Source: Deltaproteobacteria bacterium | Lineage (GTDB): Bacteria; Desulfobacterota; Dissulfuribacteria; Dissulfuribacterales; UBA3076 | Direction of reading: 5' to 3' | DNA: 39,874 nt | NCBI GenBank assembly: GCA_021159445.1 | Contig: JAGGRV010000431.1 | Location: forward strand, 1 to 39,874 | In this document: positions 20,903-38,703 of the stretch, one piece after another | Layout of the letters: every line of letters starts with the position of its first letter | Numbering within the stretch: position 1 is the first letter of the stretch | Translations under genes and position numbers: made by a program | Notes under the pieces: model-generated | Database searches by the model: none | The model's input: the letters and a program-made list of their open reading frames with translations, nothing else | Told to the model about the DNA's origin: nothing

Positions 20903-20908
20903 TACCCA

Positions 20909-23443: not shown

Positions 23444-23878
23444 ATGGCTAAAAAGATACTTATCGTGGACGATGAGCCTGATATTATTACCTTTATCAGC
23501 GCAGTCCTTGAAGACAACGGTTATTCAAGCATAAGTGCCAACAATGGGATTGAGGGACTTGAACTCTTGCGCAAAGAGAAGCCTGATCTGGTTTTGCTCG
23601 ATCTTATGATGCCCAAAAAAAGTGGCATTGCCATGTTTCAAGAGTTAAGATCGGATCCGGACATGAGCAATACTCCCGTGATCGTGCAGACCGGGGTCTC
23701 TGAGGTGACAGGGGTCAATTTCAGGAACTTCATGTTCAAACAACCGCTTCGGGATGAAAAGAAATTTGTCGAGAGCACGGGATTAACAAAATATACTATT
23801 CCAGACGGCTATATTGAAAAACCAATTGATCCTGTTGAGTTGATTGAAGTAATTAAGAAAGCCTTAAAAGAAACATAG
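23444..23878 (+). CDS. CheY-like single-domain response regulator
   Basis: The 144-aa product begins MAKKILIVDDEPD and contains LVLLDLMMPKKSG and IEKP. ATG 23444 follows GGAAGGAA and is preferred to GTG 23432. Confidence 0.88.
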   Translation: MAKKILIVDDEPDIITFISAVLEDNGYSSISANNGIEGLELLRKEKPDLVLLDLMMPKKSGIAMFQELRSDPDMSNTPVIVQTGVSEVTGVNFRNFMFKQPLRDEKKFVESTGLTKYTIPDGYIEKPIDPVELIEVIKKALKET

Positions 23879-23985
23879 CCGTTCACGGCTTGAAACTTGA
23901 AATTGGAAAGTAGAAATTGGGGAGAGATGAAACGAGTCTACACAAAAGCATGAAGGCCAAATTTCTAACTTCAACGTTCCGTGCG
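23878..23985. repeat. R1 element, copy b (108 nt)
   Basis: It starts on the last base of the RR stop codon. Its reverse complement matches 20742-20902 apart from a central deletion. Confidence 0.85.
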
Positions 23986-24036
23986 TGAATTCCCCTGCTC
24001 TATACAAATCGACAAAACCGGCTTCTTGAATAATAG

Positions 24037-24065
24037 ATTGAGACGACCTCAGAGGTCGTCTCAAT
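24037..24065. terminator. Bidirectional intrinsic terminator between the convergent RR and cytochrome b genes
   Basis: A perfect 13-bp stem attgagacgacct / aggtcgtctcaat has a 3-nt loop. T-rich sequence follows on both strands. Confidence 0.65.
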
Positions 24066-24082
24066 CCTTATTGATTTGTTGG

Positions 24083-24715
24083 TTAGTGATCTTCTACCTC
24101 TTCCTCCCAACCGGTTATCATCGTTATGATATGAGCCCAGAAGGTATGGCCCAGGGTAGCCAGATACATGTGGACAAAGAGGAAGGCAGCGAAACAGCAG
24201 GCTACCAGAAAATGTAACCCAATCACTATTTTTACCCCACCCAAAAACACCATCCATTTTTGCGTAATCAGCAGAAGCAGCAGGCCGGACAACAGGACGA
24301 TCGGTACAAGCATCGTCATGATCATCAGATATGCCCCTTTCTGCATGGGGTTGAATTTGGCATCAGGCGTGGAGTGGTGAGGGTTCGGTCCACCTTTGAA
24401 GTAGTTGAAGCCATAGAACACCATCTGTTTTATGATTCCCGTCTTCAGGTCATACATGTTGGGGACATAGAGCTTTATCAGGCTCTTATCAATAAACACG
24501 TAATATACAAACCATAACAACCAATCGATGCACACGAAAATTCCGGTAAAATCATGAACCAGTACCGCTGCTCTATAGCTGCCGAAGAAATTAATATACT
24601 CAGGAAACCTGATCTGAGCTCCTGTAATGCACAGAGTTGTTATTCCAATGGCGTGGATCCAATGCCATATCCTCACTGTAAGAGGATTGAGGTAGATCAT
24701 TTTTGGTTTTTCCAT
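24083..24715 (-). CDS. Dihaem b-type cytochrome, HydC/FdnI (Ni/Fe-hydrogenase cytochrome b) family
   Basis: 210 aa from ATG 24715, with four TM helices. Four conserved His lie in VRIWHWIHA, VLVHDF, IGLHFL and FVHMYL. The ATG is 2 nt after the stop of the upstream cytochrome c gene. Confidence 0.86.
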   Translation of the reverse strand: MEKPKMIYLNPLTVRIWHWIHAIGITTLCITGAQIRFPEYINFFGSYRAAVLVHDFTGIFVCIDWLLWFVYYVFIDKSLIKLYVPNMYDLKTGIIKQMVFYGFNYFKGGPNPHHSTPDAKFNPMQKGAYLMIMTMLVPIVLLSGLLLLLITQKWMVFLGGVKIVIGLHFLVACCFAAFLFVHMYLATLGHTFWAHIITMITGWEEEVEDH

Positions 24716-24717
24716 GA

Positions 24718-25884
24718 TCAATGTTTCCTCCTGTTTTTTTGAGTCAGAATTCTGAAAGTGCCATGGAGGCAGGCCGCGCCTAAACCACCGGCTATGATCA
24801 GCAGGCCCAAAATGCTGAGAATATCGTTTCTGGTGGAGCCCACCATGTAGAAGTCAGCAGTAGCAAAAAGAGGGTCAAGCACTGCCCCCTCTTCAACAGC
24901 GACCCTGCTGTATGTGCCATCTTGATTAGGGAAGGCTACGTAACATGTCTGCATGGCTTTGGGCCCGGCAGCGTGACAGAAAGAACAATCCCGGCGGTCT
25001 TCAAATATTCCATAACTGTGACTTGCTGTCTTTGTTGACAGCATCCCCCAGAGCCCTACACTCTTATATTTTGAGTTCATATTAAACTCTTTGAGTTCCG
25101 CCGTTGTAATGGAGCCGTCACCATTGGTATCTATGAGAGATTGAACTCCCTTGTCTCCGACTAATTGCGTGAGATCCTGGTAAGTTGCGAGGTCAATCTC
25201 ACCTTCTTTATCTGGTTTGATATCCTCTCTTTTCTCAATATACATGGTGATGACGATGCCTTTTGAATCGGTATGGCAGCTTATGCACGTAGTTGCCTGC
25301 ATGTGGAGCTTGTTCCGGAGGAGCCATTCAGAGTGGCCGGCACCTTCGTGACAATTAATACACTGTTTATTTTTTTCAAAACCTGAGGTCTCCAGGTAGC
25401 TTATTGCTGTATGGGGGCTGTGACAATCCGAGCAAACCGCATTTCCTGCATGGGGACTATTTAAATACTCTTCAACGGCCTCTTCATGGCACATACCACA
25501 ACTTTCACCAGGAGACTTGAGACCTTTGGCCGCATGGGGGTCGTGACAATCTGTGCATTCCGCATTTCCCGCATGAAGGCCCTTTGATAACTCATCAATA
25601 GTATCTTCATGGCACATGTCACAGCTTTCTTTTTCGGGCATGACACCGTCGTCCGGGTGATCATCGGTTACGTAATGGCAGGACACGCAACCATCTTCTG
25701 CGTGTTTTGTGCCGGCGAACTGGGTACCATCGATATATAAATATTCACCAACAATGGATGAATCGCCATGGCATTCCAGACAGTCATCGGTTTCCATGGC
25801 ACTCGACGAGCTGATGCCAATGCCAGCCACCAACATCATGAAACCGAAAATACAGATTATGAGAAACTTTGCTTTGAGCACCAT
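24718..25884 (-). CDS. Membrane-anchored nonahaem c-type cytochrome
   Basis: Nine CXXCH motifs were counted: CLECH, CVSCH, CDMCH, CTDCH, CGMCH, CSDCH, CINCH, CISCH and CSFCH. An N-terminal signal and a C-terminal TM (ILSILGLLIIAGGLGAACL) are present. ATG 25884 is preferred to the ORF-track GTG 25902. Confidence 0.88.
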   Translation of the reverse strand: MVLKAKFLIICIFGFMMLVAGIGISSSSAMETDDCLECHGDSSIVGEYLYIDGTQFAGTKHAEDGCVSCHYVTDDHPDDGVMPEKESCDMCHEDTIDELSKGLHAGNAECTDCHDPHAAKGLKSPGESCGMCHEEAVEEYLNSPHAGNAVCSDCHSPHTAISYLETSGFEKNKQCINCHEGAGHSEWLLRNKLHMQATTCISCHTDSKGIVITMYIEKREDIKPDKEGEIDLATYQDLTQLVGDKGVQSLIDTNGDGSITTAELKEFNMNSKYKSVGLWGMLSTKTASHSYGIFEDRRDCSFCHAAGPKAMQTCYVAFPNQDGTYSRVAVEEGAVLDPLFATADFYMVGSTRNDILSILGLLIIAGGLGAACLHGTFRILTQKNRRKH

Positions 25885-25951
25885 CCTTCCTCTCTTCCTC
25901 ACCTATAGAACTTAGAAGTTCATGTGCGAGCATACTCCAATGTCCCTTGCT

Positions 25952-26110
25952 AAGGAACGTACAATAAATAACTTGAACAAATTAACGTCTTTTTTGCCGT
26001 CTTCTTCGTTGCTCGTCGATCACATAACCCGTTATGCTCGCTCCTCGCGCCTTGAATACAACAAAAAATCCTGTTAATTTTTGTTCAACTTATTTATCTC
26101 CCGTTCCTAA
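25952..26110. repeat. R2 palindromic element, copy a (159 nt, about 45-nt imperfect terminal inverted arms)
   Basis: The arm aggaacgtacaataaataacttgaacaaattaac faces gttaatttttgttcaacttatttatctcccgttcct. Positions 26009-26110 equal the reverse complement of 39774-39874 with 1 mismatch. Confidence 0.85.
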
Positions 26111-26698
26111 AACAAAACTTTCGCACAGGACTTGCAGTAGCTATGCACCCACGATAAGGGCGCAGATCCCAAAAAAAAGTTTAGATATAGACACCGCTTT
26201 TGTCGTTTCCGATATTATAGATCACCGGAGCTAAAAAAGCGGTAGTTAAAAGAAAAACCAATGCAAGAATTATTTTTTTGTGTTCTTTTAATGGCACGCC
26301 CCTCCTTCCTGTTTTGTTATTTATTTTAAAATGATTTCTATTACACCTATGTGAAATTGTAATATTGTTATTTTAAAATTACTTTGTAACCTGCCTGGAA
26401 GAAATTGGCAATATCAGTCTGACCACCCAGGCAAATCTTTTTTGTTTTTTTATAGAGCGTGAGATCAAATCATAAGTGAGATTCCGCATAATCTCAATCG
26501 ATTCTGTCTTATGTCTAGAGCATATTCCTGTGCTTGACAAGCCCAAATGGCCCTGCTACTACAAAAACAGGTGTTAGTATTATATATAGATAGCGGCCGC
26601 TGAATAATATTGCTATGGTTTTTTCTGGAAAACGCATGACTATCAACGGCTTCGCATGAGGTTCCTTTGATTAAAGAGGCCATTAAGGTTGGGGTACA

Positions 26699-27175
26699 AT
26701 GAGATACTTCCTTACCATTGTCACAGCAATAATAACGATCATTATCTTTTTTAATCCGGAAGAGGTTAAAGGTGGAAATAACACTGAAACACAAAAATAT
26801 GTCGGTTCAGAAGCCTGCGAGGCCTGTCACCAAAAAGAATATAGTAGTTTCATCAAATATGCAAAGAAGAGCATTTCGTTCGAGAGCATTCAAAGGGTAA
26901 AAAAGGGCCTTGCCGAGGAAGAAATCCATAAGTGCTATTTTTGCCATACAACAGGATATGGTAAACCGGGCGGCTTTGTCAGTCCTGAGGAGACCCCTCA
27001 CTTGAAGAACGCAGGCTGTGAAGTATGCCATGGCCCGGGTGAACTACATGTCAGGACGCAGCGCGTTCAGGATATCAAGATGAATCTCACAATGAAAGAT
27101 TGTGAGGAGTGTCATATTTCAGAGAGGGTCAAGGCCTTCAGGTACAAGCCCTTGATTCACGGAGGCGCGCATTAG
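26699..27175 (+). CDS. Periplasmic tetrahaem c-type cytochrome, paralogue of 22666-23106
   Basis: Four CXXCH motifs are present (CEACH, CYFCH, CEVCH, CEECH). It shares CHTTGYGKPGGF and CEVCHGPGELH blocks with the other tetrahaem protein. Confidence 0.88.
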   Translation: MRYFLTIVTAIITIIIFFNPEEVKGGNNTETQKYVGSEACEACHQKEYSSFIKYAKKSISFESIQRVKKGLAEEEIHKCYFCHTTGYGKPGGFVSPEETPHLKNAGCEVCHGPGELHVRTQRVQDIKMNLTMKDCEECHISERVKAFRYKPLIHGGAH

Positions 27176-27377: not shown

Positions 27378-30071
27378 ATGTTTGGTTTTATAAGAAAGAG
27401 TTTTGCAAACAAGATAATGGCTACTGTAATAATCAGTATAGCCCTGGTTATGGCGGCTGAAATTGTCTTGAGAATATACTTCGGGACCAAAGACAGGATG
27501 GAGTTGGTAAGAACTCTTAATTTAGACGTGTCCGGATCGATCCATTCCGGCATAACATATCCAATGCATGTTGGAGATAATAAGGCTATCGAGGGAGTCT
27601 TGTCTGATGTCCGTAAAAGGATGGGAAACATCGAGGCATGGATATGCGATTTTGATCAAGTGATAACCTGGTCCACACACGAGGAAAGGGTAAAGACCAG
27701 GGTTGCAGATTCCATTCATGATAAGGAGGCATTGAAGGCCTTAAGCAAGACGTTGAGCTCAGGAGTAACACAAGAAAAAGCATTTTTAGAAGAACTTGCT
27801 GGAAGAAAGGTCCTTATTACCATCCAGCCCATTCTGAATCAAGAAGACTGCTATCACTGCCATGGCTCTTCAAGGAAAGTTCTCGGTGGCTTGATAATAG
27901 GAACTGACGTGAAGCATGCTTACATGACGGTCGTTGCTGCCAGGAACAGGACTATAGTGATGAGTTTTATTGGAATATCGATTATCATTGCCTTAATTTA
28001 TGTGATGGTGACCAGATTCATCAGGCGTCCTGTGGAGGATTTGGCTGACAAGGCAAAGAGGTTTGCAGAAGGCGATACGTCTGTTTCGGTAGACATAAAG
28101 TCAGAGGATGAAATAGGCGTATTAGGCAACGCATTTAACTATATGGTTCAAAGGGCATCTCAATTCAGCAAAAGACTTGAAAGTGAGGTCGCCAGAAAAA
28201 CCGACCTGTTAGGCGAAAGGACCAATCTTATAGCACTATTGGAAAAAGCAAATACACAACTCAGGGAGCTTGACAAACTAAAATCTACGTTCTTGGCGAA
28301 TATGTCTCATGAGCTAAGGACACCGATGAATTCTATTATCGGATATTCAGATTTGCTAATAGACGGGGTTGACGGACCAATTAACGAGGAACAGGAAAAG
28401 AGTCTGGGCAGAATTTCCAATAATGCCAGGCACCTCTTGCAATTGTTAAATGATCTTCTCGATCTCTCCAAGATAGAAGCAGGGAAAACTGAGATAGAAG
28501 CAGAACAATTCAACCTCAAAGGGCTCATTGATTCAGTAATTCCCGTGTTTGAGGGAATGATAACCCAAAAGGGTCTTTCCCTTGATTTTGATATCGATGA
28601 GAATCTGCCTTTAGTCTATGGCGATAAGAATAAAATCAAGCATGTTTTAATGAACCTGCTGTCCAATGCGATCAAGTTTACCGATGAGGGAGGCATAACC
28701 ATCCGTGCCAGGACATCCGGTCGCGGTATTCAACCTGGCGAGTCTCCCATATTTGCAGAGGTCTGTGTAGAGGATACAGGCATCGGGATAAAGGATGAGG
28801 ACCTCGGTAAGATTTTTGACAAGTTCGTGCAGGCTGACCTTTCTACCGTCCGCCAATATGACGGGACCGGCCTGGGTCTCAGTATTGCGAGAGGGTTGAT
28901 TGCATTGCACAATGGTATGATCTGGGCCACGAGCAAGTATGGCAAGGGAAGTCAATTCTATTTCACTATTCCGCTCAAACAAGAGACACTTGAATCTTCA
29001 GCTAAGCCGGTCATAGAATTACGAGTGGCTGACGACCTGGCTGAGCACTTCGGGGTGCCTGTTGAGACCTTTCTGAAAGACCCCGAATATGAAGGCAACC
29101 CGGTAAGGTGTCACGACTACATCCATTGTGGACAGCCAAGCTGTCCGGCCTATGACAGTGAAGATAAACGTTGCTGGCTCATTCTTGGGACACATTGCTC
29201 AGGACTGAAAGTCGGTGCCTATCCGGAAAAGGTTAATTTTTGCAAGAATTGTGAGGTTATACAGAAACTGGTGCTTGAGTCACAGAAGTCAAAAATCGTT
29301 GGGTCAGAGCTATCGACCGAAGAAGGCATTACGAAAAAGACGGTCTTGGCAATAGATGACAATCCGGATGCCATTGATATTATCAGGAAATCTCTGGGAG
29401 AGGACTACAAAATAGTAGGTCTTCTCAGTGGGAAAAGGGCAGTTGAAAAGGCCATAGAGACCAGACCTGTAGCCATTACTCTGGATATAATGATGCCGAA
29501 AAAGGATGGATGGCAAGTACTGCGGGAGCTGAAGAGTACGCCAGAGACCCGGGATATCCCGGTAATTGTCCTTTCAATTGTGGATAATAAAAAACTGGGA
29601 TTCAGTCTGGGTGCTGCGGAATATATGGTAAAGCCGCTAGATAAGAATTTTCTGCTCAGAAAAATAAGAGATCTGGAAAAAACGGGTAAGATACAACGGG
29701 CACTTGTAGTAGATAGTGATACAGATACAGTATCGCTGATCGAACATGCCCTGCAAGACGTTGGGTGTGAGGTAAAGACAGCTTACAATAGCCAGGATGC
29801 AGTTAAGTTGATAAAGAGTTTCATGCCCCATCTGATCATCCTCAATCTGACAATGCCCAAGGTAAATGGTTTTGATGTAATCGAGTATATAAAAACAGAA
29901 AAAAGTGCCAAGAAGATCCCTCTTATTCTTATTACTAAGAGGGAGTTGAGTGAGAAAGAGAAAGACGCTCTAAACGGTAGGTTACGTGGTATATTAAACA
30001 AGATGGTACTTAAAGAAGAAGATCTCTCACAAGAACTCAAAGATAGAATTGATGAGATAAAGAGTGCCTGA
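27378..30071 (+). CDS. Hybrid sensor histidine kinase: periplasmic CXXCH domain, HAMP, HisKA, HATPase, 7-Cys module and two receiver domains
   Basis: 897-aa ORF. CYHCH lies at aa 158-162 between two TM helices. The HAMP is intact (RRPVEDLADKAKRFAEGD..DEIGVLGNAFNYM) and the H-box is MSHELRTPMNSI. ATPase boxes are NAIKFT, DTGIGI and GTGLGLSIA. The Cys-rich block spans aa 578-625. The two REC domains contain LAIDDNPD..LDIMMPKKDG and LVVDSDTD..LNLTMPKVNG. Confidence 0.9.
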   Translation: MFGFIRKSFANKIMATVIISIALVMAAEIVLRIYFGTKDRMELVRTLNLDVSGSIHSGITYPMHVGDNKAIEGVLSDVRKRMGNIEAWICDFDQVITWSTHEERVKTRVADSIHDKEALKALSKTLSSGVTQEKAFLEELAGRKVLITIQPILNQEDCYHCHGSSRKVLGGLIIGTDVKHAYMTVVAARNRTIVMSFIGISIIIALIYVMVTRFIRRPVEDLADKAKRFAEGDTSVSVDIKSEDEIGVLGNAFNYMVQRASQFSKRLESEVARKTDLLGERTNLIALLEKANTQLRELDKLKSTFLANMSHELRTPMNSIIGYSDLLIDGVDGPINEEQEKSLGRISNNARHLLQLLNDLLDLSKIEAGKTEIEAEQFNLKGLIDSVIPVFEGMITQKGLSLDFDIDENLPLVYGDKNKIKHVLMNLLSNAIKFTDEGGITIRARTSGRGIQPGESPIFAEVCVEDTGIGIKDEDLGKIFDKFVQADLSTVRQYDGTGLGLSIARGLIALHNGMIWATSKYGKGSQFYFTIPLKQETLESSAKPVIELRVADDLAEHFGVPVETFLKDPEYEGNPVRCHDYIHCGQPSCPAYDSEDKRCWLILGTHCSGLKVGAYPEKVNFCKNCEVIQKLVLESQKSKIVGSELSTEEGITKKTVLAIDDNPDAIDIIRKSLGEDYKIVGLLSGKRAVEKAIETRPVAITLDIMMPKKDGWQVLRELKSTPETRDIPVIVLSIVDNKKLGFSLGAAEYMVKPLDKNFLLRKIRDLEKTGKIQRALVVDSDTDTVSLIEHALQDVGCEVKTAYNSQDAVKLIKSFMPHLIILNLTMPKVNGFDVIEYIKTEKSAKKIPLILITKRELSEKEKDALNGRLRGILNKMVLKEEDLSQELKDRIDEIKSA

Positions 30072-30085
30072 CAAACGGAGATGAC

Positions 30086-30481
30086 ATGAAAGAAACAGGG
30101 AAGGTTTCCGGGAAAAAATTGCTGATAATTGATGACAACCAGGATAGCCGGGAGCTGGTAATTAAGATTTTAAGAAACCGGGATTATCAGATAATTGAAG
30201 CCGTTGATGGAGAAGATGGCCTGGAAAAGGCGAATGCTGAACAGCCGGATATTATTCTTTTGGATATCTCACTTCCGAAAATGGGGGGTTATGATGTCGC
30301 GAAAAACCTGAGGCTTCGAGAGGAGTTTAAGCATACCACGATAATTGCACTGACCGCACATGCAATGAAAGGAGATGAGGAAAAGGCTTTGCAGGCTGGA
30401 TTCAGTGGATATATTTCAAAACCGATAAATGTCCGCGAGCTGCCGGGGCAGATAGAGAAATATGTGGAAGGGGGAAGGTAG
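30086..30481 (+). CDS. Single-domain response regulator
   Basis: 131-aa ORF with LLIIDDNQD, ILLDISLPKMGG, LTAHAMKGD and SKP. Confidence 0.88.
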   Translation: MKETGKVSGKKLLIIDDNQDSRELVIKILRNRDYQIIEAVDGEDGLEKANAEQPDIILLDISLPKMGGYDVAKNLRLREEFKHTTIIALTAHAMKGDEEKALQAGFSGYISKPINVRELPGQIEKYVEGGR

Positions 30482-30533
30482 ACTGTGGAAGGTAGATTAG
30501 AGTGTATATAATAGGAGAAACGGAGATTTTTGC

Positions 30534-31607
30534 GTGGACAAAACCAAGATCCTGATTGTAGAGGATAATATCGATACAGTAGACCTATTGAGGAAGAGGC
30601 TCCGCGCTGATGGATACGATACCGCTGAGGCATACGACGGCGAAGAAGGCCTTGAAAAATTCGCTGAATACGAGCCGGATCTGGTTGTGCTGGACATTAT
30701 GATGCCTAAAATGGATGGGTTTGAGGTATGCAAGAGACTCAAGGAAGATGAAAGCACCCGCTACATACCAGTCATTATCCTAACTGCCAAGGGCGACGTT
30801 GACAGCACTGTCAAGGGTCTCGATATCGGCGGGGATGATTATCTGGCTAAACCCTTTGATTATAAAGAGCTTGTTGCAAGAATACGGTCATTGCTCAGCA
30901 TTAAAGAAGAGCGCAAGAAGTTGATGGAGGCGGAGAAGACAGAAGCATTAGAAAAAATGATGGATCAAGTGGCGCATGAGATTAGGAACCCTCTTGTTGC
31001 TATAGGAGGGTTTGCGCGAAGGATCTGTGAATCCCTTTCTGAGAATGATCCAAACAGAAAATATTTGAAATTAATTGTACAAAATGTTGAGACCCTGGAA
31101 CATATGATAAAAAAGCTCATTGAGCTGAAAACCACTGTAATATCTTATAGAGAGCCGGCGGATATTAATGAGATTATTGCCGAAGCGATCGAAAAATGCA
31201 GACCTGCACTTGAAGAAAATCACATAGATATCAAAACCGAATTAATAAAAAATCTTCCTGATATTTCTGTTGATAGAGAACAGATTAAGGCGGTATTTGC
31301 CAATCTTATTGAAAATGCAATTGAAGCAATGAGAAATGAGACACGCATACTGAAAATTGGCAGCCGTGTCAGCGAGGGATATATTGAAATCAAGGTATCC
31401 GATACAGGGGTCGGTATCCCAAAAGACAAACTCAAGCATGTTCTGGACCCTTTTTTTACCTCAAAGATCCACGCAGGGCTCGGTCTTACCTATGCACTCA
31501 AGATCATTCAGGCCCACAGGGGCACGATCTCAGTGGAAAGCGAACTAGGCAAGGGATCCACCTTTACGATTAGATTACCTGTGAAGAGACACGGCAGCAG
31601 CCATTAA
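30534..31607 (+). CDS. Hybrid REC-histidine kinase
   Basis: 357-aa ORF with a GTG start. The receiver contains ILIVEDN and VVLDIMMPKMDG. The H-box is QVAHEIRNPL and the ATPase boxes are NAIEA, DTGVGI and GLGLTYA. Confidence 0.85.
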   Translation: MDKTKILIVEDNIDTVDLLRKRLRADGYDTAEAYDGEEGLEKFAEYEPDLVVLDIMMPKMDGFEVCKRLKEDESTRYIPVIILTAKGDVDSTVKGLDIGGDDYLAKPFDYKELVARIRSLLSIKEERKKLMEAEKTEALEKMMDQVAHEIRNPLVAIGGFARRICESLSENDPNRKYLKLIVQNVETLEHMIKKLIELKTTVISYREPADINEIIAEAIEKCRPALEENHIDIKTELIKNLPDISVDREQIKAVFANLIENAIEAMRNETRILKIGSRVSEGYIEIKVSDTGVGIPKDKLKHVLDPFFTSKIHAGLGLTYALKIIQAHRGTISVESELGKGSTFTIRLPVKRHGSSH

Positions 31608-31665: not shown

Positions 31666-31751
31666 TGGTGCCGAAGGGGGGATTCGAACCCCCATGGGTT
31701 TTGCCCACCACCCCCTCAAGATGGCGTGTCTACCTATTCCACCACTTCGGC
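31666..31751 (-). tRNA. tRNA-Leu (anticodon GAG), class II with long variable arm, encoded CCA
   Basis: I folded the reverse complement GCCGAAGTGGTGGAATAGGTAGACACGCCATCTTGAGGGGGTGGTGGGCAAAACCCATGGGGGTTCGAATCCCCCCTTCGGCACCA by hand. The fold has a 7-bp acceptor stem, a 3-bp D stem, anticodon stem CCAUC/GGUGG with loop UUGAGGG, variable arm GGG-CAAAA-CCC, and T arm GGGGG-UUCGAAU-CCCCC. Confidence 0.9.
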
Positions 31752-31757
31752 AAAATA

Positions 31758-32177
31758 CTATTTAGAGGTCTCAGGTTCCTTAACCCCGGTTACTGGTTCA
31801 GGAGCAGTTTCAACAGTCTCGGGAATTACAATAGTCTCAGTAGTTTCGACAGGTTCAGTAGCTTCAGGAATTGCAGTCTCAGCAGGTTCAACTGGTTCAG
31901 TAGTAACAGGACTGGTAGTTACCTCCACGTCCTGCATTATCGAATCCTCAACCCTGTGAGCTGACAAATAGGTAAGAACAAGAGCAAAAACCATAAAGGC
32001 TACTGCCAGTCCTGCAGTAATCTTGTGCAGAAAGGAGGCTGGTCCTGCACTGCCAAAAATGGTATCACTGGACCCGAACACAGCACCAATCTCAGCACCC
32101 TTGCCTTGCTGGAGCAAGACAGTAAGAACTAAGAGGATACATACAATAACGTAGACTACTATTAATATAGAATACAA
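31758..32177 (-). CDS. secG: Preprotein translocase subunit SecG with an acidic Pro/Glu/Thr-rich C-terminal extension
   Basis: The N-terminal 75 aa are typical of SecG (LLVLTVLLQQGKGAEIGAVFGSS..FGSAGPASFL). About 65 extra residues of degenerate TEPVE/ETVET repeats follow. Confidence 0.85.
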   Translation of the reverse strand: MYSILIVVYVIVCILLVLTVLLQQGKGAEIGAVFGSSDTIFGSAGPASFLHKITAGLAVAFMVFALVLTYLSAHRVEDSIMQDVEVTTSPVTTEPVEPAETAIPEATEPVETTETIVIPETVETAPEPVTGVKEPETSK

Positions 32178-32299
32178 AATATGTCCTTTATTCTAACAGA
32201 GAAAACCTGGCCCTCAGGGCCAAGTCAGAGTCAATAGGCTCTGCCGGCAGCAAGCCAAATCCGGGCCCTCTGGACCCGGATTCTTTACTCAGACACTAA

Positions 32300-33073
32300 T
32301 TAACTAATCCGGCAACTCACAATTTGACCAAAACTCCCGGGCTTGAGAGATGCACCGCCAACAAGAGCTCCGTCTACATCGGGGAGCGCCATTAATTCAT
32401 TAACATTTTCCGGTTTAACCGAACCACCATACAATATTCGAATTTGCCCTGCAATACCGAAATCGAAACGATCGGTAAGCCACGACCGGATATTGATGTG
32501 GGCATCCTGTGCCTGATCCGGGGTAGCTGTTTTACCTGTGCCGATTGCCCATACAGGTTCATAGGCAACTACTACTTTATCTGCTTCTTGGTTACCTACC
32601 CCTGAGAAGCCCGCCGATAACTGTTTTTCAAGTATCTCATTCGTAAGCCCGGCTTCTCTTTCCTCCAATTTTTCTCCGATACATAGGATTGGAAGCAAAT
32701 CATTTTCCAGGGCAGACTTGACCTTTAAGGAAATAAGGCTGTTTTCTTCTCCAAAAATATGCCTACGCTCTGAATGCCCGAGGATTACCCACTTGACTCC
32801 GAATTCCTTGAGCATGATAGATGATATTTCACCAGTGAAGCCGCCCTTTTGCTCAAAGTACATGTTCTGAGCTGCAAGGGACACAAGTTCACTTTCTTTA
32901 ATGATTTCACCGGCTGCTGAAAGGGCAGTAAATGGAGGTGCAATCACTATCTCTCTTTCCGTCAGGTAATTCACCAAGGGTAAAAAAACTTTAAGGAAAT
33001 CACGGGTCTCGGCCACGGTTTTATACATCTTCCAGTTAGCTGCTAAAACAGGTCTTCTTTTTGAAGAATTCAT
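32300..33073 (-). CDS. tpiA: Triosephosphate isomerase
   Basis: 257-aa ORF with AANWKMY, ILGHSERR, AYEPVWAIGTG and YGGSV motifs. Confidence 0.93.
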   Translation of the reverse strand: MNSSKRRPVLAANWKMYKTVAETRDFLKVFLPLVNYLTEREIVIAPPFTALSAAGEIIKESELVSLAAQNMYFEQKGGFTGEISSIMLKEFGVKWVILGHSERRHIFGEENSLISLKVKSALENDLLPILCIGEKLEEREAGLTNEILEKQLSAGFSGVGNQEADKVVVAYEPVWAIGTGKTATPDQAQDAHINIRSWLTDRFDFGIAGQIRILYGGSVKPENVNELMALPDVDGALVGGASLKPGSFGQIVSCRIS

Positions 33074-34263
33074 TTCTTGCTACACTCCTCAAGTGCCGTT
33101 ATGCCCGGCAGTTTTTTTCCTTCCAAAAGGTTGAGAAACGCCCCACCACCTGTGGACATATAAGATATGTTTTCTACTTCACCGGCCCTGTGGATAGCCA
33201 GATCAGTATCTCCTCCGCCTACAATGCTGAGGGCCTGACTGCTGCCGACTGCATGCGCCAGGGCCATTGTACCCTGGCTGAAGGAATCGAGCTCAAAGGC
33301 CCCCATTGGGCCATTCCACACTATGGTTTCGGCATTGTAAAGGGCTTCACTGAAAAGGTCTGACGTTGCAGGCCCTATGTCCAATGCCATCCAATCATCA
33401 GGAATTTCCTGGGTTGGGACGATCCTGGTCTCGGCGTTTGTGTCAAGATCCTGTGCTATGACGCAGTCAACAGGAAGGTAGAATTTAATACCTTTGTCTT
33501 TTGCCTGATCAATTAAGGCCCTAGCCGTGCCTGCCAGATCTTTCTCAGTAAGAGATTTTCCTATATCAATGCCTTGCGCTGCCAGGAACGTATTGGCCAT
33601 GGCCCCTCCGACTATCAGCTTATCCACCCGGTTCAGTATGTTTTTAATGGCCTCCAGCTTGCCAGATATCTTGGCCCCACCCAGAATGGCCACCAAAGGC
33701 CTGGCAGGTTCTTCCATGGCCTTTTTGAAGTATAAAAGTTCCTGCTTTATAAGAAAACCGGCTGCACATTCTTTAACCAGGCCGGGTACTCCGGTCACTG
33801 AGGCATGGGCCCGGTGCGATACCGCAAAGGCATCATTTATATATACATCAGCCATTTTTGCCAGGGCTCCCGCAAAGCCAGGGTCGTTTTTTGTTTCTCC
33901 TTGATGATATCTGAGGTTTTCAAGTAGCAGTACTTCTCCGTCTGACATGGAGTTGACCTGGTTCTCCACTTCATCTCCAATGCAGTCAGGGGCCAGAGAT
34001 ACCTCCCTGCCTGTCAGCTCTCCAAGACGCTTGGCCACTGGTCTCAGGCTAAATTTTTCTATCCTCTGTCCCTTTGGCCGGCCAAGATGCGAGCAGAGTA
34101 TCAGCCGTGCTCCAGCCTCTATGGCGTAACGTATGCTTGGCAGGGCCGCCCTGATACGGTTGTCGTCTGTGATATTGCCGGAATCGTCCAGGGGGGTGTT
34201 GAAGTCCGTCCTCATCAGGACCCTTTGGCCTTTCAGTGGAATCTCGTCTATGTATTTGATCAT
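33070..34263 (-). CDS. pgk: Phosphoglycerate kinase
   Basis: 397-aa ORF with VLMRTDFNTPL, SHLGRPKG, ILGGAKISGK and STGGGAFLNLLEG motifs. It overlaps tpiA by 4 nt. Confidence 0.93.
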   Translation of the reverse strand: MIKYIDEIPLKGQRVLMRTDFNTPLDDSGNITDDNRIRAALPSIRYAIEAGARLILCSHLGRPKGQRIEKFSLRPVAKRLGELTGREVSLAPDCIGDEVENQVNSMSDGEVLLLENLRYHQGETKNDPGFAGALAKMADVYINDAFAVSHRAHASVTGVPGLVKECAAGFLIKQELLYFKKAMEEPARPLVAILGGAKISGKLEAIKNILNRVDKLIVGGAMANTFLAAQGIDIGKSLTEKDLAGTARALIDQAKDKGIKFYLPVDCVIAQDLDTNAETRIVPTQEIPDDWMALDIGPATSDLFSEALYNAETIVWNGPMGAFELDSFSQGTMALAHAVGSSQALSIVGGGDTDLAIHRAGEVENISYMSTGGGAFLNLLEGKKLPGITALEECSKK

Positions 34264-34301: not shown

Positions 34302-37300
34302 TTAAACCAGAGACATCTCTTCCTCTATCTGAGTGACATGCTTACCCATATATATCGAGCCGTTTCTGCCGTCAATACTCAAGAATTCACCGGAACGAAT
34401 AATGCTGTCGTGTAATCGCGCAAAACCCAGATTTTCAAAGACCTGGAGTTGCTTGCAGCCCACAATGCAGTTTTTGTCCAGACGAAATGCAATAATAGCT
34501 GCATGAGATGTCTGCCCTCCCTTTGCTGTGAGCAGGCCGTCTGTTAAAGTAATTTCCTTGATATCGTCCGGGACCGTGTCTGACCGGATCAGGATCAATG
34601 GGATTTTGGGCTCCTTCTCGCGGAAGGATTTAATCTCGGAGAGGGTGAACACGGCCTTCCCTGTCACGGCCCCTCCACTCACCCCAATGCCTCTACCCAG
34701 GTAGCTGGCCTCCAATTCTGCTGAGTGTACAAAAACCTGAACGATGTGTCGCTTCTTTGTGGTCATGTTTCGGCTCTGGAGTATAAAAAGCTGGTTGCTC
34801 TCCGGGCCTTCAAAGGTAAATTCTATCTCCTGGGGGTCCCATCTTTTTCCGTAGATGAGCTCTCTGGTCATGGATAACAAGCTATTGTAAATCTCCGGAA
34901 AATTTTTCTCCAGAATCATTTCGGAATCAAGCCCCATGGCCTTTTGCTGCTTTATTGAAATCGGATATGTAGTGACCAGGCCGCTTACAATGTCATCCCC
35001 CTGGTTGCCGGTGGTGAAGTCGCCCCACAGGCTGATACTGTCTATATGGTCAGTATGGATCGGCGTAAAGGCCACGCCGCTCCCAGAGGTTTCAGCAAGA
35101 TTTCCATAGGCCATGGCCTGCACTATTACAGCCGTGCCCCAATAATCAGACATTTCCATTATTTCCCTGTAATTTTTTGCTTTTTCAGACTCCCAGGATG
35201 TAAGAATCAGTCGTATGGCCATAAGGAGTTGCTCAAAAGGTTCCTTTTCCAGCTCCAGACCGTGGTCCAGCGTGGCTTGACGGTAAGCCAGGGCCAACTC
35301 TTTCATCTGGTCTCCGGTAAATTCCCTTTTCTGCTTTACTCCATACCGGCGCTTGTGATTACTAATGAGCTCGTTGAACATCTCACGGTCCAGATCAAAA
35401 GACATGGCCCATGATTGAACAAACCTGCGGTAGTTGTCCCAGGCAAACCAGGCATTACCGGTTTTTTTAGCCAGGCCTTCTATGATTTCAAGATTACTGC
35501 CCACATTTATGATTGTTGACATCATCCCCGGCATGGAAATGGCCGCTCCGCTCCTTACCGATAGGAGCAAGGGATTTGACTGGTCGCCAAATCTGCGCCC
35601 GGTTTGATGCTCTAACTCCCCAATGGCTTTCTGAAGCTGTGATCTGAATTCTCTGTATACACTGGGCAGTTTCCAGATAATCGGGTAACACCTGAACACC
35701 TCGGTTGTGACTATTACTCCTGGTGGAACCTGTACTCCCTCCTGTGCCAGGAGCACCAGGTTAAAGCCTTTATTGCCGAGGTGTATAAGGTTTTTTGTCT
35801 GTTCTTTCGGGCTGTGTATGGTACACAAAATCTGATTCGGATCATAGCTCAACATTAAGTCGAGTTCCTTGTGATCCAGTCTTTCTTTTTGCTCTCCAAG
35901 CACCTGATATACCCTGGCTATGAAGTTGTCCAGGTACTGTAGTCCAAAGGTGCGGGAGATAAGGTCTCTCAGGAACCACTCTGTTATCTGATGAATGAGC
36001 TGGGTCTCGTTTTCAGCCTCTTTTATAGCAGTCTTGTATTTTGGAAGAAGGTTGTGTTTGCCCAACTGGCGAATAATAAGAGAGATATTGTCCTGATGGG
36101 GGCTTATGTAATAGACATGGATAATGTCTTTAACCCCCTCAGACAGCCCTCTCACTACGTCCAGATACTGGGAAAAGGCAAATCGCCTGACCTCGAGGGA
36201 TTTTTCCAGCAAGGCGAGATGGGTGGCGAACTTCCTGGAATACACTCCGTCTAGCTGTACGGCTCTCCAAAAGAGGCGGAGGTACCTCAGGATGCGCACA
36301 AAGATAGCCCTTGAGATGAAGGTTGAATCTATCTCAGCTATCAGCCGTTCGAAGTAAATATTGGCCAGGTTCTCCAGACGGAAACTGAGGCTAAGGGCGT
36401 CAAATTTGCGCTCATGGTAACGGCCATACATTGAAGGAATATCCACTGTTATATGCCGCTTGTGGTATATGTCCTCCCTGATTTCAAATTGCTCTTTACT
36501 GAGAATAATACCCTTAAGGACATCAAGCTGGTCCAGGATTACCTCAAGACACCGCTCCGGATCGTCGTTTACATCCAGGATCTCAAGTACCTTGTCCAGT
36601 CCCTCAAAACCCAGATTTTTGGCCTCTTCCAGATGATGACGGATTTCCTGGGTGCCGAGCTTGTACTTATGGGCCTCAAGCCTGTACATCTGGATAAGAA
36701 GTTCAACACGCCTTCTCTCTTGATAGGGGATATCAGAGACTTGACACAAAATTTGAGAGAGCCGGTCCTTTTCCAAATTCAGCAGGCTATCTACATTGTG
36801 GGTAAATCGTTTGAGATCCAGCACATCTGCCAGATACCGTATGAGCCTGTGGACATGATCCACGTGAGGGCCATGGACAGGAACCTGCTCCAGCATCTCA
36901 GGGGGCAAGAAGGGGGCCAGACCTTCCTTTTGCCTGCTGAACCAGAAGCACAGAATGGCTTCAATAAAATCGACAATGCGGTTGTTGCTCTCAACATGGC
37001 TCTGTTTTCTCAGGAAATGGATAAGTATATCCTTGCGGTGAGATATCTCATCAAGCTCTGTTGACACATCCCTCAGGAGACCCTCTGCTCCTATTTCATT
37101 GAAGTAAACCGGCAGGACCTTGGTTAACTGTTTGACTAGATTGTAAGTCGGCTCTATGTCACAGTTCAATAATCTGCTGACGTCTTTCTGAAACAGGTCT
37201 GTATCCCGGATGCATGTGCCTGCCAGCTTAAGATTTATTATAAGGGCTGACAACAGGGTGCCGCAGACACTGGTTCTTTGTTCTACAAGTTTTAACCAGA

Positions 37301-38579
37301 CACGAATATTCTGCAGATGAGCAGGATCGCTCAAGATATGCCATTCGGCATCTACGCCCTTAATCCCAGGGGGTTGGAAGCCAAATCGGACTACCTGATT
37401 GAGAAAAAGCTCTATAAGCCTTGTGTCGTCCCTGCGGACTACTTCTGAACCCAGGGCCTCAATGCACTGAAGTGCAGTCCTTGGGAAATTGCCTACTTGC
37501 TGCTTTAGCAGCGCAAAGCTTCTGGAAAGGATCTCTTGAAGCTGCTTCAGGTCTGCAGTGCGTATAAGATACAAAAGGCTGCGGTTGATCTGTCGAAGTA
37601 TTTCCTCGTGGATCGTGGACAGGCCTTCTATTTCAATAAGATGGAATGGCAGCAGAAGGTATAATCCGGCCTCTTGATTGCGGGAAGCCTGCTCTTTTGA
37701 TGATACGGACGGGATTTGACACGACAAACGGCCTAGTTCCTGGACAATCTTTCTGTACTGATTCACTATATCCAGATAGCCTTGGCGCCTGGCCAGCTCC
37801 AAGACGTCTTTTTCCTTGAGAGGCGCTTTCCTTTCGATTTCCAGGTCTTCCAAAGAGGATTTGATCTGTTTATGCGAGACCGGCTCGATAAATCCCAGCG
37901 TATTTTTCAGATCTTCAGAATCCAGTTCCATGGAGAACTGTTCAATAGCGCTGTTTAGCCAGTTAACAGGGTCTTCTTGCTCAAGCCAGTACTGAGAGGT
38001 AGCTTTCTGAACTTCAACAAGAAGTCTTCCGGCTTCATCCCACAACTCTGAAGGAATTTTTTGTCCATCCAGGCGGTTGGAAAGATGCTGTATCAGGTGT
38101 GATACAGGGTGATAGCTCATGGCAACAGCCTTAATCACATGCGTATTGGATTCTTTGAGCTTGTGAAAGATATGTTCGATATCAGGCAGTATTGTCAGAA
38201 GTTTTTCAGTATCTACTTTTTGAATAATCTTTTCCAGAAAGGCCAGAAGTCCGTTTACGGCTTCGGTCTTTTGGCCATTTTCAGGGGCCTGGGAGATGAC
38301 ATCAGAGAAAGTGTCCAAAAGCACTCTGATGGCTTCAGGTCCCTGAGGCGAACGGCTGTAAGTAGCAAGATTCTTGAGGGCAAATGACCTCAGATCTCCG
38401 ATTACGATTTCCCAGTTGCGAAATGGATGGTGCAGCTCAAAGAGGAGGCTATCAACAGCCTTAATTATGCCCTGATAATCCTTGACTGCGTCCCGGAGAA
38501 CCTGGTAGCGGGAGTCAAACTCTATTTCCCGGACGGCTGTGGCCTCAAGATTTGCACGGAGGGCTTTCGATGCTATCAT
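34302..38579 (-). CDS. Large PPDK-derived protein: about 925-aa unrecognised N-terminal region plus the PPDK nucleotide-binding (ATP-grasp) domain and phosphohistidine swivel domain, with no PEP/pyruvate TIM-barrel
   Basis: 1425-aa ORF. The last 496 aa track pyruvate phosphate dikinase block by block (LLLSVRSGAAISMPGMMSTIINVG, WDNYRRFVQSW, DYWGTAVIVQAMAYGN, SGSGVAFT, QGDDIVSGL, QEIEFTFE..LFILQSRN, GGQTSHAAIIA). The protein ends about 65 aa after the catalytic His (codon 34503-34505). Confidence 0.85.
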   Translation of the reverse strand: MIASKALRANLEATAVREIEFDSRYQVLRDAVKDYQGIIKAVDSLLFELHHPFRNWEIVIGDLRSFALKNLATYSRSPQGPEAIRVLLDTFSDVISQAPENGQKTEAVNGLLAFLEKIIQKVDTEKLLTILPDIEHIFHKLKESNTHVIKAVAMSYHPVSHLIQHLSNRLDGQKIPSELWDEAGRLLVEVQKATSQYWLEQEDPVNWLNSAIEQFSMELDSEDLKNTLGFIEPVSHKQIKSSLEDLEIERKAPLKEKDVLELARRQGYLDIVNQYRKIVQELGRLSCQIPSVSSKEQASRNQEAGLYLLLPFHLIEIEGLSTIHEEILRQINRSLLYLIRTADLKQLQEILSRSFALLKQQVGNFPRTALQCIEALGSEVVRRDDTRLIELFLNQVVRFGFQPPGIKGVDAEWHILSDPAHLQNIRVWLKLVEQRTSVCGTLLSALIINLKLAGTCIRDTDLFQKDVSRLLNCDIEPTYNLVKQLTKVLPVYFNEIGAEGLLRDVSTELDEISHRKDILIHFLRKQSHVESNNRIVDFIEAILCFWFSRQKEGLAPFLPPEMLEQVPVHGPHVDHVHRLIRYLADVLDLKRFTHNVDSLLNLEKDRLSQILCQVSDIPYQERRRVELLIQMYRLEAHKYKLGTQEIRHHLEEAKNLGFEGLDKVLEILDVNDDPERCLEVILDQLDVLKGIILSKEQFEIREDIYHKRHITVDIPSMYGRYHERKFDALSLSFRLENLANIYFERLIAEIDSTFISRAIFVRILRYLRLFWRAVQLDGVYSRKFATHLALLEKSLEVRRFAFSQYLDVVRGLSEGVKDIIHVYYISPHQDNISLIIRQLGKHNLLPKYKTAIKEAENETQLIHQITEWFLRDLISRTFGLQYLDNFIARVYQVLGEQKERLDHKELDLMLSYDPNQILCTIHSPKEQTKNLIHLGNKGFNLVLLAQEGVQVPPGVIVTTEVFRCYPIIWKLPSVYREFRSQLQKAIGELEHQTGRRFGDQSNPLLLSVRSGAAISMPGMMSTIINVGSNLEIIEGLAKKTGNAWFAWDNYRRFVQSWAMSFDLDREMFNELISNHKRRYGVKQKREFTGDQMKELALAYRQATLDHGLELEKEPFEQLLMAIRLILTSWESEKAKNYREIMEMSDYWGTAVIVQAMAYGNLAETSGSGVAFTPIHTDHIDSISLWGDFTTGNQGDDIVSGLVTTYPISIKQQKAMGLDSEMILEKNFPEIYNSLLSMTRELIYGKRWDPQEIEFTFEGPESNQLFILQSRNMTTKKRHIVQVFVHSAELEASYLGRGIGVSGGAVTGKAVFTLSEIKSFREKEPKIPLILIRSDTVPDDIKEITLTDGLLTAKGGQTSHAAIIAFRLDKNCIVGCKQLQVFENLGFARLHDSIIRSGEFLSIDGRNGSIYMGKHVTQIEEEMSLV

Positions 38580-38602: not shown

Positions 38603-38703
38603 ATTAACTGTTAGCTATTAGTTCAATGATTATAGCTAGTTTTGCTATACTAATCCGTGATAAACCATTTTTCAAAGCTAAATCCTAATGGCTAACAGCT
38701 AAT
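38603..38703. repeat. GCTAAC-word hairpin element between gap and the PPDK-derived gene
   Basis: attaactgttagctattag (38603-38621) is complementary to ctaatggctaacagctaat (38685-38703) at 17/19 positions, with a 63-nt spacer. Confidence 0.65.

Follow-up and report, generated by a model that had tools for sequence, protein, structure and literature searches.

What does a protein of 1,425 amino acids (aa), of which only the last 500 or so residues resemble pyruvate, phosphate dikinase (PPDK), do between the genes for two enzymes of lower glycolysis? The question is raised by a window of 39,874 nucleotides (nt), the whole stretch of DNA analyzed here (contig JAGGRV010000431.1 of a Deltaproteobacteria bacterium), in which an open reading frame (ORF) that we call X lies on the minus strand between gap, encoding glyceraldehyde-3-phosphate dehydrogenase (GAPDH), and pgk, encoding phosphoglycerate kinase (PGK), followed by tpiA, secG, and a tRNA-Leu gene. 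This ORF and gene order, first put forward in a sequence-only reading of the window, are borne out by the ORF list, the Pfam matches, and the coordinates. The X protein is 100% identical to a database protein (P0001) that is annotated there as "phosphoenolpyruvate synthase." On our best reading, X represents an uncharacterized, widespread family of three-module phosphohistidine dikinases. Its conserved genomic partner is GAPDH, often a divergent long paralog, and not the gap-pgk-tpiA block. Since X adjoins a GAPDH gene at most loci checked, its gene context points to an uncharacterized phosphotransfer or control step in lower glycolysis/gluconeogenesis. Literature searches found no paper describing the X family, its N-terminal domain, or the X-GAPDH module; what they turned up was VadK and several dikinases with swapped domains.

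Domain architecture of X and its family

Pfam places the PPDK_N and PEP-utilizers domains within residues 977 to 1407, and phmmer against the PDB aligned residues 931 to 1417 with residues 17 to 512 of the C. symbiosum PPDK (E value of 2e-81). The alignment ends at residue 512 of 873-874, where the phosphoenolpyruvate (PEP)/pyruvate barrel would start, and X itself ends 66 residues past its catalytic histidine, His1359, which lies in the motif GGQTSHAAIIA (GGQTSHAA, aligned with GGMTSHAA of PPDK). K22, R92, and T453/H455 of PPDK correspond to K937, R1009, and T1357/H1359 in the HMMER alignment, and E1251, E1253, Q1268, and R1270 of X, which sit in a QEIEFTFE...LQSR motif, are invariant in the family; X carries equivalents of the PPDK catalytic residues K22, R92, D321/E323, and Q335/R337. 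Across 70 diverse sequences, this half of the protein has a mean identity of 47% to the window protein, and 78 of its positions are at least 93% conserved. In Foldseek searches, a model of the dikinase half matched PPDK structure 1kbl with a root mean square deviation (rmsd) of 3.3 Å over 538 columns (∼33% identity) and, more weakly, PEP synthase (PEPS), rifampin phosphotransferase (RPH), and HpeI; the nuclear magnetic resonance (NMR) structure of the His domain, 2fm4, matched the swivel domain with a template modeling (TM) score of 0.84. Pfam detected no PEP-utilizers_C barrel (PF02896) in X. It is thus strongly supported by sequence comparison that the C-terminal ∼500 residues form an intact PPDK-type ATP-grasp and swivel-His unit without the barrel, as the sequence-only reading had claimed from its motifs. 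The His domain of X is terminal and is held by one linker, compared with two in PPDK.

Models of full-length relatives did not claim the protein. The PPDK equivalog TIGR01828 scored 374.9 bits, below half of its cutoff of 843.45, with the best stretch at positions 10 to 348 of 865, and the PEPS models TIGR01418 (64.8 bits versus 739.75) and NF005057 (76.8 versus 598) matched the His-domain region only. The 534-aa model NF004531 (PRK05878), which we take to be the NCBIfam model of VadK-type proteins, scored 286.4 bits versus a cutoff of 456, the RPH model NF041857 scored 20.3 bits versus 999, the PigC model scored 17 bits, and TIGR01417 (Enzyme I) matched weakly. The PPDK and PEPS identities of X are effectively refuted.

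A word-indexed search returned at least 120 full-length homologs (1,405 to 1,470 aa, 50 to 100% identity), variously named "phosphoenolpyruvate synthase," "pyruvate,orthophosphate dikinase," or "PEP/pyruvate-binding domain-containing protein." Searched exhaustively with phmmer, 1.84 billion cluster representatives gave 556 matches (50%-identity clusters) to residues 1 to 926, 180 of them below 1e-30; nearly all full-length matches have 1,350 to 1,450 aa, and, fragments and a hemerythrin-fused clade aside, the N-domain was found in no other architecture. The distant members tested (28 to 36% identity; Thermodesulfovibrio, Dissulfurispiraceae, Myxococcota, and Desulfobacterium) all combine the N-domain with PPDK_N and PEP-utilizers, the exception being the hemerythrin-fused P0156, in which PEP-utilizers was undetected and PPDK_N barely scores. 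Among 177 full-length members, the catalytic histidine is missing only in the hemerythrin lineage, in one truncated sequence, and in P0156, which has a garbled C terminus and is itself a member of that clade. Absence of the barrel, and shared ends and length, are common to every full-length homolog checked. We therefore rejected a frameshift or a split barrel, the artifact that the sequence-only reading had named as a risk: across independent assemblies, hundreds of homologs agree in length and in their C-terminal end, and in the window pgk begins 38 nt past the stop codon of X.

The hosts belong to several orders and at least two phyla and are mostly sulfur-cycling anaerobes. The closest genome matches (83 to 95% identity) are metagenome-assembled genomes (MAGs) of SEEP-SRB2, bacteria that partner anaerobic methanotrophic (ANME) archaea. 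A gap gene and a 95%-identical X also lie on a contig (L010; JAIWFS010000102.1) of a MAG labeled "archaeon," probably mis-binned SEEP-SRB2 DNA with its ANME partner.

Residues 1 to 925 had been described as helix-rich and devoid of any known motif, and this description held in every search that we made. Pfam found nothing in this region of the whole protein and no family in 13 diverse N-domains at E values up to 1, NCBIfam gave chance matches only (E ∼0.04), and the PADLOC defense models and phmmer against the PDB gave no match there. A profile hidden Markov model built from the 13 N-domains had as its best hit among PDB sequences a designed helical repeat (E value of 0.077). An AlphaFold2 (AF2) model of residues 1 to 940, built from a 37-sequence alignment, is all-α, with ∼45 helices and one β-hairpin at residues 701 to 722 (mean predicted local distance difference test [pLDDT] score of 82; predicted TM score [pTM] of 0.67). 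Foldseek matched the N-domain model to α-solenoids only (CRM1/exportin, transportin, and importin-β; E ∼3e-4, TM of 0.1 to 0.2, rmsd of >30 Å), and we treat these model-based matches as nonspecific.

Conservation divides the region in two. Residues 1 to 309 are predicted with high pLDDT as helices, only 2 of the 309 positions are at least 93% conserved, and distant homologs often do not align there. The N-core (residues 310 to 925) has a mean identity of 40%, and 47 of its 616 positions are at least 93% conserved in the 70 diverse sequences. About 28 of these 47 are D, E, K, R, H, S, T, Y, or Q, namely D459, T460, D461, Q464, E499, R503, D510, R515, D517, H521, R524, K525, H528, and E530 in the first part and K638, Y639, E702, K707, H709, S716, Y718, Y721, E723, R734, Q804, E867, R871, and D884 in the second. 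They include a motif block at residues 454 to 533, GTCIRDTDLFQKD ... FNEIGAEGLLRDVSTELDE ... HFLRKQSHVESNN, which is kept even in the most distant family members, and the hairpin motif at residues 702 to 736. Many near-invariant residues lie in or beside segments that AF2 cannot place (407 to 416, 458 to 460, 495 to 498, 530 to 532, and 702 to 719). These segments are also disordered in a model of residues 300 to 1425 (pLDDT of 84, pTM of 0.70): the loops at 458 to 460, 494 to 498, and 530 to 532 stay below a pLDDT of 50 in both models, residues 702 to 719 have pLDDT values of 35 to 41 whether the dikinase half is present or not, and no interdomain ordering of the invariant loops was seen in the longer model. 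Since near-invariant charged residues, many of them in disordered loops, are what would be expected for a ligand site, the conservation pattern resembles that of an active site. We dropped the idea that the DTD and RDVSTELDE motifs are terpene-synthase-like, as it had no fold support. X defines a new conserved domain of ∼600 residues that has no relative detectable by sequence or fold search.

The hemerythrin-fused clade (P0158, P0278-P0283, and P0156; 1,455 to 1,540 aa; gene at L048 5001-9623) carries an extra N-terminal hemerythrin domain. In this clade the catalytic histidine is replaced by tyrosine (GGATSYAA), the ATP-site arginine is lost (SVRSG to SVGAG), and, as in no other group, the KRHIA and IPSxYG motifs of the 702-719 hairpin are degraded; the DTD, EIGAEG, and HFLRKQ block is retained. 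The gene is not adjacent to a GAPDH gene, and ferritin-like and GGDEF genes lie nearby. From its sequence this clade looks like a pseudo-dikinase, possibly a sensor of O2, iron, or redox state. Because the hairpin motif was lost jointly with the catalytic histidine and the ATP-site arginine, the clade suggests that the hairpin is functionally coupled to phosphotransfer, which is modest evidence from one lineage.

Linkage to GAPDH genes

The proteins encoded by gap, pgk, tpiA, and secG of the window were searched with tblastn against 42 genome loci. The gap-X-pgk-tpiA-secG order was present at all SEEP-SRB2-like loci. Where X is 57 to 61% identical to the window protein, a divergent "long" GAPDH gene (415 to 419 aa) stands between X and pgk, and at 45 to 47% identity (Desulfobulbaceae and Desulfocapsaceae) only the gap-X pair was found, with a NiFe hydrogenase downstream. 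Scanning metagenomes with a profile of the N-domain yielded 80 further loci. Adjacency was counted at 80 loci with enough flanking sequence on both sides; at 65 of them, a same-strand GAPDH gene directly adjoins X, as a canonical gene upstream only (42 loci), a long gene downstream only (7 loci), or both (16 loci). All 32 loci whose X shares at least 48% identity with the window protein have an adjacent GAPDH gene, as do 31 of 45 in the 40 to 48% identity band. An unbiased neighbor census, made by clustering all flanking ORFs, also ranked GAPDH first (89 loci), followed by a GT5 glycogen-synthase-like gene (37), pgk (34), tpiA (30), rapZ (24), rpoN (23), and ptsN (22). The synteny is thus not unique to this genome. 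The embedding of X in a gap-pgk-tpiA block, stressed in the sequence-only reading, stands in part: adjacency to GAPDH is conserved, and the presence of pgk and tpiA downstream of X is confined to some lineages.

The long GAPDH ties in from its own side. It forms a large type-I-like family (408 to 424 aa) with five insertions, below the TIGR01534 cutoff, and it lies directly downstream of an X homolog in every long-GAPDH context examined. In Thermodesulfovibrio (Nitrospirota), a gene for a 408-aa GAPDH follows X after 20 nt, and the same pair recurs at L046 and L047. In four sampled contexts (Desulfococcus, Desulfonema limicola, and two MAGs), all other flanking genes differ, and in all four a gene for a 1,400- to 1,409-aa protein with PPDK_N and PEP-utilizers ends 40 to 50 nt upstream. 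The long GAPDH retains both catalytic motifs (S-C-T-T and T-V-H-A) along with its phosphate-site residues; its "NDL" motif, which specifies NAD, has the Asp replaced, so its cofactor may be NADP. The catalytic Cys and His are intact in both GAPDH types, as are the residues of the phosphate site, and therefore the metabolites they share would be glyceraldehyde 3-phosphate (G3P) and 1,3-bisphosphoglycerate (1,3-BPG). Across orders and phyla, then, the X gene is tied to genes for phosphorylating GAPDHs.

The cultured strains Thermodesulfatator indicus and Dissulfurirhabdus thermomarina have the order rpoN-hpf-ptsN-rapZ-EIIAman-GNAT-gapS-X-gapL-pgk-tpiA-secG. Since these strains carry gapL and the GNAT gene, the window, judged by gene content, is a reduced version of this cluster from which both have been lost. 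The five genes rpoN-hpf-ptsN-rapZ-EIIA(Man) stand directly upstream of gap-X on the same strand in SEEP-SRB2, Thermodesulfatator, Dissulfurirhabdus, and others; the GNAT acetyltransferase gene between EIIA(Man) and gap is present in the cultured strains and missing in SEEP-SRB2. A functional link of X to this nitrogen-related phosphotransferase system (PTS-Ntr) cluster was set aside because the cluster is lineage-restricted (the X-gapL modules found in Desulfobacterales, Desulfobulbales, and Thermodesulfovibrio lack it) and has no HPr gene between EIIA-man and gap.

About 37 Desulfobulbales-type loci (e.g., L025 1928-14413) carry aroC, a GT5 glycogen/starch-synthase-like gene (542 to 609 aa), gap, X, and a four-gene NiFe hydrogenase cluster (4Fe-4S dicluster, FAD/NAD-binding, small-subunit, and large-subunit genes), which we read as group 3-like. 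A NiFe hydrogenase also adjoins a very divergent X on a Dissulfurispiraceae contig (L044 9691-12007).

A possible third active site and the alternatives

We favor, with a probability of roughly 40%, the reading that X is a catalytic dikinase with a small-molecule acceptor and a third site in the N-core. ATP would phosphorylate His1359 at the ATP-grasp site with release of AMP, as in PPDK, PEPS, and RPH; the C-terminal His domain would then swivel to the N-core, where the DTD/EIGAEG/HFLRKQSHVES block and the KRHI..IPSxYG hairpin would form the third site, and the phosphoryl group would pass from His1359 to the acceptor bound there. The acceptor would be one of the metabolites at the GAPDH step, with the carboxylate of 3-phosphoglycerate (3-PG) as the leading candidate; its phosphorylation would yield 1,3-BPG [3-PG + ATP (+Pi) ⇌ 1,3-BPG + AMP (+PPi)]. 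X would then act as an AMP-forming, PGK-independent partner of GAPDH, a parallel to the pyruvate-to-PEP conversion driven by PPDK and PEPS, with flux in the gluconeogenic direction in the autotrophic SEEP-SRB2 genome.

The logic has precedents. In acceptor-swapped dikinases, the phosphoryl group moves from the ATP-grasp domain via the swivel histidine to an acceptor domain particular to each family, which takes the place of the PEP barrel, and RPH, PigC/HapC, HpeHI, MarK, and GWD phosphorylate nonprotein acceptors (small molecules; α-glucan for GWD) (PMC4844700, PMC12167813, PMC12624787, PMC13534948). X shares this logic with them and with phenylphosphate synthase and groups with these dikinases at the superfamily level, with marginal sequence similarity to RPH and PigC: ATP-grasp domain, swivel-His domain, and a non-barrel third domain are fused in every full-length member checked. 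Its putative acceptor domain is N-terminal and unrelated to those of RPH, PigC, GWD, and others, and its context is central carbon metabolism, compared with antibiotic resistance, pigment synthesis, and aromatic catabolism in the swapped dikinases. The His domain is also C-terminal in RPH. PPDK itself (1kbl/1dik) has the ATP-grasp domain and swivel histidine in common with X, including the ATP-site residues and the T-S-H motif, but it has a C-terminal PEP/pyruvate TIM barrel where X has none, and X has 925 unrelated N-terminal residues. PGK, like X, is encoded beside gap and under the favored reading would serve GAPDH with the same acyl phosphate; it has no homology to X and is ADP-forming by direct in-line transfer, in contrast to the AMP-forming phosphohistidine route proposed for X.

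A small-molecule acceptor is preferred because the characterized acceptor-swapped dikinases use nonprotein acceptors, and a metabolite because the GAPDH partner switches type and side, which would fit a shared metabolite better than a coevolved interface. The preference for 3-PG comes from two further considerations. As a rule, genes for acyl-phosphate reductases of the GAPDH superfamily accompany the gene for the kinase supplying the labile acyl phosphate (pgk-gap, proB-proA, argB-argC, and ask-asd), and transfer from phosphohistidine to an acyl phosphate has a precedent in succinyl-CoA synthetase. We nonetheless consider 3-PG specifically to be a doubtful choice as the acceptor. Slightly more doubtful is the full scheme of an AMP- (possibly PPi-) linked, PGK-independent interconversion of 3-PG and 1,3-BPG via phosphohistidine, which in many sulfate reducers and sulfur disproportionators would, together with PGK, interconvert AMP + PPi and ADP + Pi and so recycle by-products of sulfate activation.

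Several observations weigh against the favored reading. No substrate-binding or enzymatic fold is recognizable in the N-domain, the structures closest to it are HEAT-like solenoids, whose usual ligands are proteins, and 600 to 900 residues would be large for a 3-PG site. No GAPDH gene adjoins X at 15 of the 80 loci or in the most divergent clades. The His-less clade keeps much of the N-domain, which therefore can function without phosphotransfer. Because PGK, encoded at the same place, works in both directions, the need for another route to 1,3-BPG is not obvious, and an energy-limited organism would spend one more ATP equivalent on the dikinase route.

These points bear on a second explanation, that X is a VadK-like regulatory kinase or scaffold, which we regard as possible though on balance unlikely. 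The adenylate, Pi, or PPi state would govern the autophosphorylation of X on His1359, and the solenoid N-domain of X would bind one or both GAPDH isoforms and control their activity or flux direction, by phosphotransfer to the GAPDH protein or by phospho-dependent binding, without a new metabolite. VadK (Rv1127c) of Mycobacterium tuberculosis is a barrel-less, PPDK-derived protein for which autophosphorylation on the equivalent histidine has been demonstrated; it binds methylcitrate synthase and dehydratase (prpC/prpD) and has been proposed to regulate central-metabolic enzymes (PMC13400623). Like X, it consists of an ATP-grasp and a His domain without barrel and is associated with central-metabolic enzymes. 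The only structural matches of the N-domain are protein-binding HEAT/karyopherin solenoids, X stands in cultured relatives between two co-oriented GAPDH isoforms that would need posttranslational discrimination, a catalytically dead clade fused to a hemerythrin (sensor) domain exists, two-component regulators flank the most divergent members, and the rpoN-hpf-ptsN-rapZ-EIIA cluster upstream is regulatory. However, VadK is an actinomycete protein of ∼490 aa without an additional domain, whereas X, from Thermodesulfobacteriota and Nitrospirota, has a conserved 925-aa N-domain and has GAPDH as its genomic partner rather than the methylcitrate enzymes; phosphotransfer from VadK to its partners has not been demonstrated (PMC13400623). 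The dense invariant charged loops of the N-core, constant across phyla while GAPDH changes type and side, would be unusual for a protein-protein interface. Both its extra N-domain and its NF004531 score place X outside the VadK type, and X scores higher on TIGR01828 (375 bits) than on this presumed VadK-type model (286 bits). A barrel-less PPDK regulator is thus already known from VadK (PMC13400623); what is new in X is the domain and the central-metabolic context.

A third possibility, which we think highly unlikely, is that X would catalyze the backward reaction and thereby conserve energy (1,3-BPG + AMP + PPi → 3-PG + ATP + Pi), making with PGK a net AMP + PPi ⇌ ADP + Pi cycle. In sulfate reducers, this cycle would recycle the AMP and PPi that adenosine 5′-phosphosulfate (APS) reductase and ATP sulfurylase produce; in sulfur disproportionators, it would supply them. 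By our own estimate from standard free energies, the backward reaction is near equilibrium. Sulfate reducers and sulfur disproportionators from two phyla make up nearly all of the named family members (SEEP-SRB2, Desulfobulbaceae, Desulfocapsa, Dissulfurirhabdus, Dissulfurimicrobium, Thermosulfuriphilus, Thermodesulfatator, Desulfococcus, Desulfonema, Thermodesulfovibrio, and Dissulfurispiraceae), and pgk is adjacent in many lineages. PPDK runs in the ATP-forming direction in PPi-dependent glycolysis (PMC5371819). The idea depends entirely on the putative 3-PG/1,3-BPG assignment, however, and the taxonomic skew may reflect phylogeny and horizontal transfer among cohabiting anaerobes; a Myxococcota member exists. 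By its sequence, X may use Pi/PPi (PPDK-like) or water (PEPS-like), and the neighbor census showed linkage to sat, apr, or hppA at no locus.

We give very little credence to X as an α-glucan (glycogen) dikinase, a bacterial functional analog of plant GWD whose N-domain would bind polyglucose for phosphorylation by the phosphohistidine. GWD is the other known dikinase of ∼1,400 aa with a very large noncatalytic N-terminal part, and the GT5 glycogen-synthase-like gene lies immediately upstream of gap-X at the 37 Desulfobulbales-type loci. That adjacency is confined to one lineage, though, and the adjacency to GAPDH is general; Pfam and the AF2 model reveal no carbohydrate-binding module (CBM45/CBM20) or β-rich domain in residues 1 to 925, and the domain order of GWD differs from that of X.

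We attach next to no weight to an ordinary PPDK or PEPS with its barrel elsewhere or lost by assembly error, which the database names suggest and which the model scores and the missing PEP-utilizers_C match contradict, as does the shared end of X at the equivalent of PPDK residue 512, or to an ATP-driven analog of Enzyme I (PtsI/PtsP) feeding PTS-Ntr, for which the homologous swivel phosphohistidine domain and the ptsN, rapZ, and EIIA-man genes upstream at 22 to 24 loci speak, but against which stand the X-gapL modules that lack this cluster, the missing HPr gene, the charging of Enzyme I by PEP in a TIM barrel versus ATP in the ATP-grasp domain of X, and its HPr-binding helical subdomain, an insertion in the His domain versus the 900-residue N-terminal region of X.

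The X locus in its host and the significance of the family

The coordinates of X, its modules, and its neighbors are collected in Table 1. The spacer between gap and X measures 140 nt; a consensus scan found one σ70-like match in it, which is weak evidence, since such matches are no commoner in the gap-X region than in shuffled sequence. No terminator-like hairpin was found on the minus strand among gap, X, pgk, and tpiA, and X is probably cotranscribed with pgk, judging from the sequence. The hairpin after tpiA, the sole intergenic minus-strand terminator candidate in the cluster, is the likely end of a gap-X-pgk-tpiA transcription unit. Rfam found no RNA elements in the cluster besides tRNA-Leu.

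TABLE 1 Features of the X locus (window coordinates unless a locus is named) and of related loci
Feature	Coordinates	Strand	Details
Gene X (N-domain/ATP-grasp/swivel-His)	34302..38579	minus	1,425-aa ORF, ATG start; stop codon 34302-34304
Variable helical N-terminal region, residues 1-309	37653..38579	minus	Mean identity 0.24 to 69 diverse homologs
Conserved all-α N-core, residues 310-925	35805..37652	minus	Putative acceptor/third active-site domain; no known family or fold
Motif block, residues 454-533	36981..37220	minus	Invariant over 37 homologs
β-Hairpin motif EDIYHKRHIxxDIPSMYGRYHExKFDA...R.E, residues 702-736	36372..36476	minus	Near-invariant; sole β element of the N-domain
PPDK-type ATP-grasp nucleotide-binding domain, residues 926-1290	34710..35804	minus	PF01326; TIGR01828 positions 10-348
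Phosphohistidine swivel domain, residues 1291-1425	34305..34709	minus	PF00391 at 1329-1407, E 4e-15
Codon of catalytic His1359	34503-34505	minus	
gap, canonical type I GAPDH, 335 aa	38720..39727	minus	Pfam Gp_dh_N/C; TIGR01534 432 bits, cutoff 367
pgk	33070..34263	minus	PF00162, E 3e-154; begins 38 nt after X
tpiA	32300..33073	minus	PF00121; 4-nt overlap with pgk
secG	31758..32177	minus	Downstream neighbor in gap-X-pgk-tpiA-secG order
tRNA-Leu(GAG)	31666..31751	minus	Neighbor beyond secG
σ70-like promoter match TTGAAA-17-TAGTAT	38647..38675	minus	Consensus scan of gap-X spacer; weak evidence
Terminator-like hairpin	32204..32226	minus	After tpiA; 10-bp stem, 6 GC pairs, then T-rich tail
Long GAPDH genes, other loci	L043 10106-11332; L046 9342-10589; L047 9282-10556; L016 5721-6980; L031 10186-11433; L129-L134		
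rpoN-hpf-ptsN-rapZ-EIIA(Man) clusters, other loci	L018 149-4753; L133 1-3889; L134 1-3713; L046 1-4917		

The rest of the window offers a view of the host. A folD gene followed by a gene for a 665-aa Prismane/CO-dehydrogenase-family protein (133-3052) suggests a Wood-Ljungdahl context, and an Mrp/Mbh-like antiporter run (11805-18512) comprises MnhB/MbhE and three Proton_antipo_M proteins. Three multiheme c-type cytochromes, one with MtrC/MtrF-like domains, and a cytochrome b are encoded at 22666-27175; this cluster would suit a bacterial partner of ANME archaea that takes up electrons from outside the cell or from another species. Hybrid histidine kinases and response regulators are unusually dense at 19178-22606 and 27378-31607, on the opposite strand and just upstream of the tRNA-Leu/secG/tpiA cluster end, and two of the histidine kinases have an Mcp40H-20-type sensor domain in common. 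The predicted gene content fits an autotrophic, electron-accepting partner of ANME archaea, and carbon flux here would therefore be gluconeogenic.

Lower glycolysis and gluconeogenesis are well charted, yet in most of the genome and metagenome contigs studied here, the gene for an enzyme-like protein of 1,400 residues adjoins a GAPDH gene and often stands between two. Its hosts are ecologically dominant anaerobes (the ANME-partner SEEP-SRB2, Desulfobulbaceae, Desulfobacterales, Thermodesulfobacteria, and Thermodesulfovibrio), and because X is misannotated as PEP synthase or PPDK, a spurious pyruvate-to-PEP step may have entered metabolic reconstructions. Cultured, genome-sequenced hosts include Thermodesulfatator indicus, Dissulfurirhabdus thermomarina, Desulfonema limicola, and Desulfococcus. 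If X is a regulator, it would extend the VadK principle to a larger multidomain family and to a core glycolytic enzyme; if it is a metabolic dikinase, it would add a new reaction and AMP/PPi energy coupling to the central carbon metabolism of energy-limited sulfur cyclers. Whichever reading holds, the X family comes with a dedicated long GAPDH paralog.

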